Positions 59,225 through 59,540 of a stretch of DNA of 64,000 nt are shown in pieces (within the stretch, counting starts at the first letter, position 1; the number at the start of each line of letters is the position of its first letter). The stretch is from a phage. Under the pieces are notes generated by a model. The model had not been told where the DNA came from, made no database searches, and saw only the letters and a list, made by a program, of their open reading frames with translations. The stretch is from sequence record OZ346167.1; one strand, written 5' to 3'. The translations under genes and the position numbers were made by a program.

Positions 59225-59253
59225 GTTGACATTGAGATGTGACTACTTTATAG
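59225..59253 (+). promoter_or_regulatory. Strong sigma70-like promoter (TTGACA-N17-TATAGT) inside the tRNA array
   Basis: consensus hexamers and spacing. Confidence 0.6.
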
Positions 59254-59458
59254 TAACCTTAGTTTTCGTTGCGTAGCGTCTATTTTGCAAATTTAAAATA
59301 AATGCAAACGACAATGTTTTTCTGGCAGTAGCTTGATAGGCTAAACACCAGTGAGGTCTTCCAATCCCTCATCAAAGAATTTGGCGTACTAGCCCACGGT
59401 ATGATTAATAAAGTGGGCATCTTTAAGGGCTTTCTAAGAGAGTCTTTAAAGATAATTA

Positions 59459-59540
59459 CGGGGCGTATCTCAGCGGTCTTCTAAACCGCCGTTAACCGAG
59501 TAAGTGGAGTATGCGGGTTCGAGTCCTGCCGCCTCGACCA
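59459..59540 (+). tRNA. Atypical tRNA-like gene, possibly tRNA-Arg (anticodon TCT) with aberrant D region and insertion
   Basis: 7-bp acceptor pairing, T-arm GCGGGTTCGAGTCCTGC, hairpin GCGGT-CTTCTAA-ACCGC, 82 nt. Confidence 0.4.

Follow-up and report, generated by a model that had tools for sequence, protein, structure and literature searches.

In the 64,000-nucleotide (nt) stretch of phage DNA analysed here (OZ346167.1; "the window" below means this whole stretch), a single promoter at 59226-59254, lying inside a tRNA array, probably drives two independent RNA genes: a small RNA derived from transfer-messenger RNA (tmRNA) and, 3' of it, a tRNA-Arg(UCU) with non-cloverleaf strand connectivity, here called the rewired tRNA-Arg. 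That both are conserved, structured genes is well supported by comparison across phages, whereas the cellular roles proposed for them below are predictions and are worded as such. By its sequence, the window is assigned to a Felixounavirus (Felix O1-type phage); positions 59150-59700 share 99.8% identity with Escherichia phage radambza, and there are matches in hundreds of Ounavirinae genomes. The tRNA array (57425-63554) contains, according to ARAGORN, 25 tRNAs covering 19 amino acids. No tRNA-Arg is among the 25, in line with the original prediction, made from the letters of the window alone, that the array holds no other canonical tRNA-Arg, and the window also lacks the tRNA-Arg(ACG) found 3' of tRNA-Leu(CAA) in relatives.

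The same prediction had pointed to a near-consensus promoter (TTGACA-N17-TATAGT), and this stands: the site agrees with the sigma-70 consensus at 11 of 12 positions, scores highest within 58500-60300 and gives a predicted transcript start at A59261/G59262. Promoter-like sites are not in excess across the region (3 seen, against 3.8 +/- 2.0 in shuffles), and equivalent promoters lie at the same distance 5' of AGUUUUCG in Mooglevirus and Erwinia phage relatives. It is also correct that the roughly 200 nt 3' of the promoter contain no tRNA, none being detected there by ARAGORN or Rfam; an open reading frame (ORF) of at least 50 amino acids is likewise absent from both strands of this segment. What does not hold is the view of these 200 nt as a leader of the tRNA, because they form an independent and widespread RNA gene that occurs without any tRNA in other phages.

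The small RNA: a tag frame and a domain antisense to host tmRNA

The predicted transcript of the small RNA begins at AGUUUUCG, 43 nt 5' of the resume codon, and its sequence reads as a tmRNA coding module of the translated type, not as a spacer. Like bacterial tmRNA (SsrA; RF00023), it has an A-rich resume determinant with U-A at positions -5/-4, a GCA resume codon and a ten-codon tag that starts with AN(D/E) and ends in a hydrophobic xAxA, with the stop codon in a helix-5-like hairpin and with pseudoknots after the frame (Table 1). In the window, AUAAAU is followed by GCA AAC GAC AAU GUU UUU CUG GCA GUA GCU UGA, which would specify ANDNVFLAVA; the tag of E. coli tmRNA is ANDENYALAA. Unlike bacterial tmRNA, the small RNA has no acceptor stem, T arm or CCA, hence no tRNA-like domain, and no P2 helix, and it carries a 5' domain antisense to host tmRNA. 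Its matches to the Rfam tmRNA models are all below threshold (16.3 bits for the one-piece model, against a gathering score of 47), and no equivalent of pseudoknot 1 was found upstream of the tag frame.

The comparison was based on a family set of 36 distinct sequences from unrelated phage groups, to which a scan of IMG/VR added copies. The tag frame is exactly ten codons long in all 36, in the form of 22 ORF sequences that encode 14 peptides and use all three stop codons. Third codon positions are the most variable, and the other two frames differ in length. The peptides follow the pattern A-N-[DE]-x-x-x-L-[AM]-[AV]-A, and the determinant is kept as AUAA(A/C)U. The helix-5-like stem is 97% paired, with two pairs changed on both sides (CUGG/CCAG, CUGA/UCAG, UGGC/GCCA), while the two stems of pseudoknot a are 96.5% and 97.8% paired with compensatory changes in 3 of 5 and 4 of 4 pairs, respectively. 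For pseudoknot b, the first stem is 100% paired with compensatory changes in two pairs; the second (GCCC/GGGC, CCUC/GAGG, CCGU/ACGG), which MAFFT misaligned, was followed by eye only, with no formal count.

This module has a distribution of its own. In BLAST searches, 59295-59419 stands alone in phages unrelated to Felix O1, including Vi01-like Ackermannviridae, N4-like Schitoviridae, Klebsiella phages of ~48 kb, Sashavirus and SSU5-like phage-plasmids. Among 5,426 complete E. coli genomes, 338 (~6%) carry the small RNA, at 246 places on plasmids and 97 on chromosomes, and it is never annotated; blastn places these copies in prophages and phage-plasmids, not in ssrA, and in lambdoid prophages the small RNA lies between the Q antiterminator and the holin gene. 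The complete genome of Klebsiella phage P5026 (49.6 kb) has the small RNA and no tRNA or tRNA-like sequence detectable by ARAGORN or by Rfam at E <= 1, and the N4-like copy ends in a terminator, without a tRNA. In the window, no terminator-type 3' end was found for the small RNA, whose 3' end is presumably made by RNase P cutting at the 5' end of the tRNA. Between the small RNA core and the tRNA lies a spacer hairpin, which in some relatives is replaced by a longer hairpin of another family.

The 5' domain directs attention to the host. The first nine nt of the small RNA, AGUUUUCGU, are the exact complement of nt 97-105 of E. coli tmRNA, that is, tag codons 3-6 (GAC GAA AAC U), and the whole target region, nt 76-106, runs from the 3' edge of pseudoknot 1 over the A-rich resume determinant with the resume codon and on through tag codons 1-6. 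Within the otherwise variable 5' region of the family, only two motifs are invariant, GUUUUCG right at the 5' end and, some 10 nt further on, GCG. When aligned collinearly with the antisense strand of tmRNA, the window copy matches nt 76-106 with z = 5.5, and the P5026, lambdoid, N4 and Vi01 types show antisense matches to nt 60/68-106, with z ranging from 2.6 to 12 across lineages. The predicted duplex with tmRNA has an energy of -26.0 kcal/mol for the window (-10.8 +/- 2.7 kcal/mol when the 5' domain is shuffled) and of -22.6 to -39.4 kcal/mol for the other lineages (shuffle means -9.6 to -20.1 kcal/mol), and for no copy does any of 500 shuffles reach the observed value. Against the tag region of the phage itself, the 5' domains reach just -10 to -19 kcal/mol. 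The phage tags depart from the host tag exactly at residues 4-6, so that the seed does not match the phage's own frame. The conserved positions of the 5' domain are the paired ones and the variable ones fall in a predicted internal loop, and in every lineage the phage resume codon lies 10-15 nt past the predicted end of the duplex (in the window, the frame begins 14 nt after the domain), which is roughly how far the resume codon of tmRNA lies from pseudoknot 1. It is of note that the signal resides in the whole collinear 5' domain; the 16-nt seed alone was not significant against shuffles, and duplex prediction with the whole RNA against tmRNA was uninformative. On these statistics, the small RNA is identified as a tmRNA coding module joined to an anti-tmRNA domain.

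A mechanism that would use both parts can be outlined, with annealing in vivo, translation of the phage frame and benefit to the phage all taken as predictions. The 5' end of the small RNA would seed on the single-stranded host tag codons 3-6, and the duplex would then zip via the resume codon and determinant into the 3' strand of pseudoknot 1, masking the host resume codon and tag. This would bring the phage template next to the tRNA-like domain of the host and tether it at 10-15 nt from the duplex end, much as the resume codon is spaced from pseudoknot 1 in native tmRNA, and the intermolecular helix would take the place of both pseudoknot 1 and the host tag template. In this way, ribosomes under rescue by host Ala-tmRNA/SmpB would add the phage tag and not ANDENYALAA. 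We put forward only tentatively the full scheme, in which such a tag-swap RNA, carried by many enterobacterial phages, prophages and phage-plasmids, hijacks charged host tmRNA to provide the phage tag in trans while, in Felix O1-type phages, the adjacent non-cloverleaf tRNA-Arg works with host arginyl-tRNA synthetase (ArgRS), EF-Tu and the ribosome.

Several considerations weigh against the tag swap. We know of no precedent for a tag template supplied in trans. A perfect complement of 8-9 nt between RNAs of these sizes would, by our estimate, be expected about once by chance, and for this reason what carries the argument is that the match is collinear over 30-45 nt and where it lies. Covariation cannot probe the pairing with the target, whose sequence in the host does not vary, and tRNA-like modules occur near the small RNA in some relatives. 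Finally, a duplex of 30-45 bp could simply inhibit tmRNA or trigger its cleavage. The last point is the substance of an alternative that we consider rather unlikely, namely that the small RNA acts on tmRNA solely as an antisense inhibitor or as a guide for its cleavage, its frame being an untranslated relic of a captured ssrA fragment or a case of mimicry at the RNA level. In its favour are the strong, host-specific complementarity to tmRNA nt 60-106, resume codon included, and the lack of a tRNA-like domain; moreover, a tmRNA fragment consisting of the tRNA-like domain only has been reported to inhibit tmRNA (PMC4131195), which makes interference of phages with trans-translation plausible. 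On the other hand, the ten-codon frame is kept in every family member through 22 versions and all three stops, with third positions varying most and the amino-acid pattern retained, AUAA(A/C)U is conserved and two pseudoknots downstream covary; a simple antisense RNA has no need of any of these features.

The surroundings of the small RNA vary between carriers. In Vi01, the copy is surrounded by more than 1.6 kb of highly structured sequence without genes (NC_015296 134806-136501), with a segment resembling the 3' end of tmRNA (GGAUGUAAGG ... GGGUUCGACUCCC ... GGCUCCAC) ~390 nt 3' of the tag frame; this segment was tried as an acceptor partner and rejected, the pairing not being consistent. 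Repeated long hairpins flank the small RNA in an E. coli O26 prophage (locus L258, 3870-4230), in locus L007 (1660-1735) and in many IMG/VR loci (e.g. L039, L047, L079 and L102). They share the stem GGUAAGAGCAYUG ... CAGUGCUCUUUCC with a conserved U.U and differ in their loops, some of which are T-arm-like (GGUUCGAAUCC), while the loop type CCCUUAUGGGGCUUGGCUUAAAUGCA is found in Mooglevirus and lambdoid prophages; the copies 5' and 3' of the small RNA could also pair with one another around it. In five unrelated IMG/VR loci, a canonical tRNA-Arg(UCU) and then a tRNA-Met follow 330-800 nt 3' of the small RNA, an arrangement that echoes the pairing of small RNA and tRNA-Arg in Felix O1-type phages.

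The rewired tRNA-Arg: the anticodon arm within the D stem

In the element that follows the small RNA, the strands are ordered as acceptor 5' strand, U8-A9-U10, 5' strand of a D-stem-like helix (D'), a single nt, the whole anticodon arm, an 8-nt linker C(G/A)U(U/C)AA-N-N, 3' strand of D', a 12-nt strand UAA-N-(U/C)GGAGUAU, T arm and acceptor 3' strand. In other words, family-wide pair counts place the two strands of the D stem on either side of the anticodon arm, which is nested inside it. The original prediction had noted that only 7 nt stand where a D arm should be and that 23 nt are inserted before the T arm. Both lengths are right (the 7 nt, UAUCUCA, lie 3' of the acceptor strand and the 23 nt lie 5' of the T arm in the 82-nt element), but the D arm is not missing nor is an insert added, since positions 11-13 pair with GAG in the 23-nt segment and this helix covaries. 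The anticodon-type hairpin GCGGU-CUUCUAA-ACCGC and the normal T arm are as described there, the acceptor stem of 7 bp was wrongly called perfect, its pair 3:70 being G.U and not Watson-Crick, and a standard cloverleaf with other boundaries, the refutation suggested at the time, does not exist. Scoring by tRNA tools, also suggested, gives a divided answer: ARAGORN makes no call on the element in the window, in Felix O1 or in two further loci (L001, L002), and the Rfam tRNA model accepts it with 31.7 bits, against a gathering score of 29, in an alignment that deletes the D arm and contains a 20-nt insertion.

The family has at least 66 distinct members, and these 66 sequences were assembled from two pattern scans of IMG/VR and from phage records. 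All four helices covary in the alignment, with 94.6% of cells paired and 19 of 21 pairs changed on both sides; none of 500 shuffles matches this level of pairing, and sliding the 3' partners reduces it to 33-46%. Pairs 11-42, 12-41 and 13-40 form in every one of the 66 sequences and occur as two (C-G/U-A), four (U-A/G-C/A-U/C-G) and three (C-G/G-C/U-A) pair types, respectively, the resulting helix variants being CUC/GAG, CGC/GCG, CAG/CUG, CGG/CCG, CAC/GUG, CAU/AUG (CAUC/GAUG with an optional fourth pair) and UCC/GGA. An alternative register, in which CUC would pair with the second GAG inside UGGAGUAU, was rejected because that GAG is invariant and positions 11-13 change (CGC, CAG, CGG and others) together with the first GAG, and a general fourth pair, 14-39, was discarded because it is unpaired in 51 of the 66. 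Three points count against this structure. RNAalifold finds three long helices and not the 3-bp D' helix, which is why the latter is argued from pair counts; the invariance of UGGAGUAUG and GUUCGA is due in part to the search patterns; and the single sequence folds no better than its shuffles (z = -0.33), so that support beyond chance comes from comparison.

The anticodons of the 66 members are UCU (62), CCU (2), ACG (1) and UCG (1), all of them for arginine, and the discriminator position 73 is A in 31, G in 31, U in 3 and C in 1. A covariance model of the family gives its members 79-101 bits and the window copy 96.5, with ordinary tRNAs at no more than 36 bits, and a scan with this model recovered two further divergent members, again with anticodons for arginine. 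GGA after the D' helix is invariant across the family and may be equivalent to G18-G19-A20; the 12-nt strand would then represent a displaced D loop and variable region, providing equivalents of A14, R15, G18, G19, A20 and Y48, and the usual elbow and core contacts could form despite the changed strand connectivity. Folding into an L shape, charging by ArgRS and use on the ribosome are likewise predictions.

Phages VpaE1_ev108, Michonne and Mijalis have a canonical 76-77-nt tRNA-Arg(UCU) in the identical slot with the same flanks, whereas VpaE1_ev035, D1-2 and Felix O1 have the rewired element there. The canonical allele shares the loop CUUCUAA, a similar T loop and an encoded CCA with the rewired one but is a 77-nt cloverleaf that ARAGORN detects, in contrast to the 79 nt plus CCA, different topology and ARAGORN-missed status of the rewired gene. 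In D1-2, the anticodon stem GCUGU/ACAGC in place of GCGGU/ACCGC amounts to a compensatory change. Felix O1 has an identical rewired gene, unannotated, at NC_005282 25951-26029, and elsewhere annotators have labelled the element as pseudo or OTHER or have given it no name. At 83-90% identity, it is found in unrelated phages, among them a 110-kb Klebsiella phage, Vequintavirinae, Stephanstirmvirinae and 348-kb jumbo phages. Among bacterial and archaeal genomes (one each for 185,579 species), only four true members were found, all on contigs of metagenome-assembled genomes with phage-like tRNA arrays. The family is restricted to viruses, common in phages and missed by gene finders. The suggestion of a structurally unusual tRNA-Arg(UCU) in the original prediction is borne out by this covarying, Arg-only family and by the canonical tRNA-Arg(UCU) in the same slot of close relatives.

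With respect to function, AGA accounts for 10.5 per 1000 codons in the window, or 28% of its Arg codons, and the authors of the Felix O1 genome paper expected a tRNA for the over-used AGA and did not find one (PMC3185647). Taken together, the Arg anticodons, the gap in Arg tRNAs, the use of AGA and the identical gene in Felix O1 support a working tRNA-Arg and exclude a pseudogene. We therefore judge it probable, jointly with the reading of the small RNA as a separate gene, that 59459-59540 would function as a tRNA-Arg(UCU), the only tRNA-Arg of the array, and would supply decoding of AGA, a codon on which the phage draws heavily.

The identity elements of E. coli ArgRS are C35, U/G36, A20 and A/G73. 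In the rewired family, C35 and U36/G36 are present throughout and A/G73 in 62 of the 66, with A59537 in the window. A point against a purely arginine-accepting tRNA is that the window copy combines G2:C71, G3:U70, G4:C69 and A73, the main determinants of alanyl-tRNA synthetase, and it could be charged with alanine besides or in place of arginine. G3:U70, present in 7 of the 66, is a lineage trait, and related enterobacterial-phage copies retain the G.U pair, even those (L132, L133) with compensatory changes at pairs 1 and 2. An Ala-accepting tmRNA-like domain serving the upstream tag was considered on the basis of G3:U70 and A73 and was rejected, given the rarity of G3:U70, the canonical tRNA-Arg used by relatives and the exclusively Arg anticodons.

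A role other than decoding, in which the element would act as a decoy or regulator, for example by absorbing a host anticodon nuclease directed at tRNA-Arg or by titrating ArgRS, appears improbable. The strictly conserved anticodon loop within a non-canonical core would fit such a role, and phage tRNAs are known to counter defences that target tRNAs (PMC10264068). A decoy is at odds, however, with the retention of the acceptor stem, the A/G discriminator, a frequently encoded CCA, the T arm and the D-loop-like GGA strand, as well as with the replacement of a canonical tRNA-Arg(UCU) allele, its standing as the one Arg tRNA beside tRNAs for all 19 other amino acids in the array and the heavy use of AGA.

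Relation of the two RNAs to each other and to known systems

The proximity of a tag frame and a tRNA raises the alternative that the small RNA is the coding piece of a phage two-piece (permuted) tmRNA, with a partner to be sought in the permuted tRNA-like element at 58745-58840 or in the neighbouring tRNA, which has G3:U70. We regard this as very unlikely. ARAGORN does call a permuted tmRNA in Mijalis, joining an element made up of a T arm, ACCCUUC-GCCA, AACA and GAAGGGU to the tag ANDNVFLAVA, but the "gene" so defined spans 749 nt and three ordinary tRNAs. The counterpart in the window includes, 3' of its stem, a normal D arm, GUGU-AAUGGUA-GCAC, and a long hairpin, and has only a partial match to the Rfam tRNA model (58719-58769, 22 bits). 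Its stem covaries with that of Mijalis (ACCCUUC-GCCAAACA-GAAGGGU, CCA encoded), which favours the two-piece reading, yet the window element lacks both CCA and G3:U70. In one IMG/VR locus (L029), a similar element lies directly 3' of the small RNA, and the window tRNA does offer G3:U70 and A73. Against this, P5026 contains no tRNA-like sequence, relatives combine the small RNA with canonical tRNA-Arg or tRNA-Leu, G3:U70 is confined to the seven family members mentioned and no conserved complementarity was found between the small RNA and the tRNA. Two related candidates were also discarded: a tRNA-like partner adjoining the small RNA, for which T-arm motifs occur near some copies but in no fixed place, and the motif ACGGUCUG, shared by the permuted element of the window and some prophage hairpins, as a family trait, only part of the family having it. 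That the tRNA element is a decaying pseudogene and the 200 nt a non-functional spacer or leader is scarcely credible, since the ARAGORN miss, the pseudo, OTHER or absent labels and the unremarkable single-sequence fold are set against compensatory changes in all tRNA helices across 66 sequences from unrelated phages, which also dispose of the pseudogene option in the original prediction, and against the conservation of the small RNA, its frame included, from one phage family to another, with covariation in its pseudoknots.

Both RNAs differ from their nearest known counterparts. In alpha-proteobacteria, cyanobacteria and some beta-proteobacteria, there are two-piece tmRNAs whose pieces are joined by base pairing. 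The small RNA resembles them (RF01849, RF04321) in that a coding RNA is separate from at least part of a tRNA-like domain. Their coding piece, however, bears the 5' acceptor strand, and a single gene gives rise to both pieces, whereas the small RNA starts with an antisense seed, its proposed partner would be a complete host tmRNA engaged via the coding region, and it scores 28.9-31.7 bits with these models, below the threshold of 47. Among phage genes derived from tmRNA that possibly interfere with trans-translation are those of the mycobacteriophage Bxz1 group, of Bacillus phage G and of DS6A (PMC4131195). The first two are complete tmRNAs and the DS6A gene is a tRNA-like domain only, so that the small RNA is the converse, the coding and pseudoknot part with an antisense domain added; no Felix O1-like phage is among those given in the tmRNA survey of Hudson et al. 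(PMC4131195). With trans-acting antisense RNAs the small RNA shares an invariant seed at the extreme 5' end for a single-stranded region of a host RNA. Such RNAs, including phage anti-sRNAs (sRNA, small RNA), typically have a 5'-terminal seed and a complementarity of 7-12 nt. The phage RNA differs in having tmRNA as predicted target, a complementarity of 30-45 nt, a translatable template of the tmRNA type and, in the window, no terminator-type 3' end.

For the rewired tRNA-Arg, the closest parallel is with mitochondrial tRNAs lacking the D arm (e.g. tRNA-Ser(AGY/UCU)), which also have no D hairpin and have an extended anticodon helix (PMC7609411). In these, the connector is unpaired and the contacts between D loop and T loop are lost, whereas the rewired tRNA has positions 11-13 paired throughout the family, keeps a D-stem-like helix, a GG-A strand and a standard T loop, and occurs in bacterial viruses and for arginine; a review of non-canonical tRNAs gives no phage or Arg example (PMC7609411). 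With the canonical cloverleaf (RF00005), it has in common the 7-bp acceptor stem, the 5-bp anticodon stem with a 7-nt loop, U33, a purine at 37, the 5-bp T stem and a UUCRANY loop, and what it does not have is the D hairpin between position 9 and the anticodon stem. Felix O1 and Moogle have been stated to "encode ssrA" (PMC4319497, PMC4392139), evidently on the basis of an ARAGORN call of the permuted-tmRNA type. In searches of the literature outside most subscription journals, no description of either RNA was found, and the only remarks are ARAGORN-based mentions of a "tmRNA" in the genome announcements for Moogle and Mushroom.

Neighbouring features and significance

The coordinates are collected in Table 1.

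Table 1. Positions in the window of the promoter, the two RNAs and the permuted element
Feature	Position	Strand	Details
Sigma-70-type promoter	59226-59254	+	TTGACA 59226-59231; 17-nt spacer; TATAGT 59249-59254
tmRNA-derived small RNA	59261-~59458	+	core 59261-59418, then hairpin 59419-59453
5' antisense domain	59261-59289	+	complementary to E. coli tmRNA nt 76-106
Resume determinant	59298-59303	+	AUAAAU; Rfam tmRNA alignment
Tag frame	59304-59336	+	GCA...GCU UGA; Rfam tmRNA alignment
Helix-5-like hairpin around stop codon	59322-59351	+	outer stem 59322-59325 / 59348-59351
Pseudoknot a	59352-59384	+	stem 59352-59356 / 59367-59371; loop 59361-59364 with 59381-59384
Pseudoknot b	59385-59418	+	stem 59385-59389 / 59399-59403; loop 59392-59397 with 59413-59418
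Spacer hairpin	59419-59453	+	AUCUUUAAGG...UCUUUAAAGAU; between small RNA core and tRNA
Rewired tRNA-Arg(UCU)	59459-59540	+	CCA encoded; family alignment, pair counts, family model
Acceptor stem	59459-59465 / 59530-59536	+	CGGGGCG/CGCCUCG; 7 bp, 3:70 = G.U
U8 A9 U10	59466-59468	+	
D' helix	59469-59471 / 59498-59500	+	CUC/GAG; positions 11-13 with 40-42
Anticodon arm	59473-59489	+	GCGGU-CUUCUAA-ACCGC; anticodon UCU 59480-59482
Linker	59490-59497	+	
D-loop-like strand	59501-59512	+	UAAGUGGAGUAU (= UAANUGGAGUAU); 3' of D' helix
T arm	59513-59529	+	GCGGG-UUCGAGU-CCUGC
Discriminator	59537	+	A, then encoded CCA
Permuted tRNA-like element	58745-58840	+	T arm GAAGG-UUCGAUU-CCUUC; 7-bp acceptor-type stem with 4-nt loop, ACUCGGC-AGAU-GUCGAGU

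Some further observations concern the tRNA array and the rest of the window. Two ORFs within the array, 58019-58462 (+) and 59775-60179 (+), encode Cys- and His-rich products of 147 and 134 amino acids; relatives have HNH endonucleases annotated at or near these positions, and insertions of this kind vary between otherwise near-identical phages. The tRNA-Trp(CCA) at 59690-59760 (+), with a length of just 71 nt and its anticodon at position 30, has no Rfam tRNA match, and the annotation of phage D1-2 treats it as a pseudo-tRNA; this, too, may be a non-standard tRNA. Matches to group I introns were found at 10515-10798 (-), with 64.2 bits (Rfam threshold 50), and at 28255-28435 (+), with 33.1 bits, below that threshold; introns are absent according to the Felix O1 genome paper (PMC3185647).

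Until now, the tmRNA-derived genes known from phages were whole tmRNAs or bare tRNA-like domains. A small RNA that unites the coding part of tmRNA with an anti-tmRNA domain points to active manipulation of ribosome rescue and proteolysis tagging during infection, and it makes testable whether a tag template can act in trans. If the tag swap were true, it would constitute a three-strand form of trans-translation and a new viral route to reprogramme protein quality control. As for the rewired tRNA-Arg, a large, covarying, Arg-specific family with the anticodon arm inside the D stem is found at a time when the cloverleaf is held to be near-universal outside mitochondria, and, if the rewired tRNA is charged and decodes, the bacterial translation machinery would accept a wider range of tRNAs. 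The family shows that tRNA finders have a systematic blind spot when phage genomes are annotated, and it may offer an orthogonal tRNA scaffold, while the rewired gene would account for the "missing" AGA tRNAs of Felix O1-type genomes.

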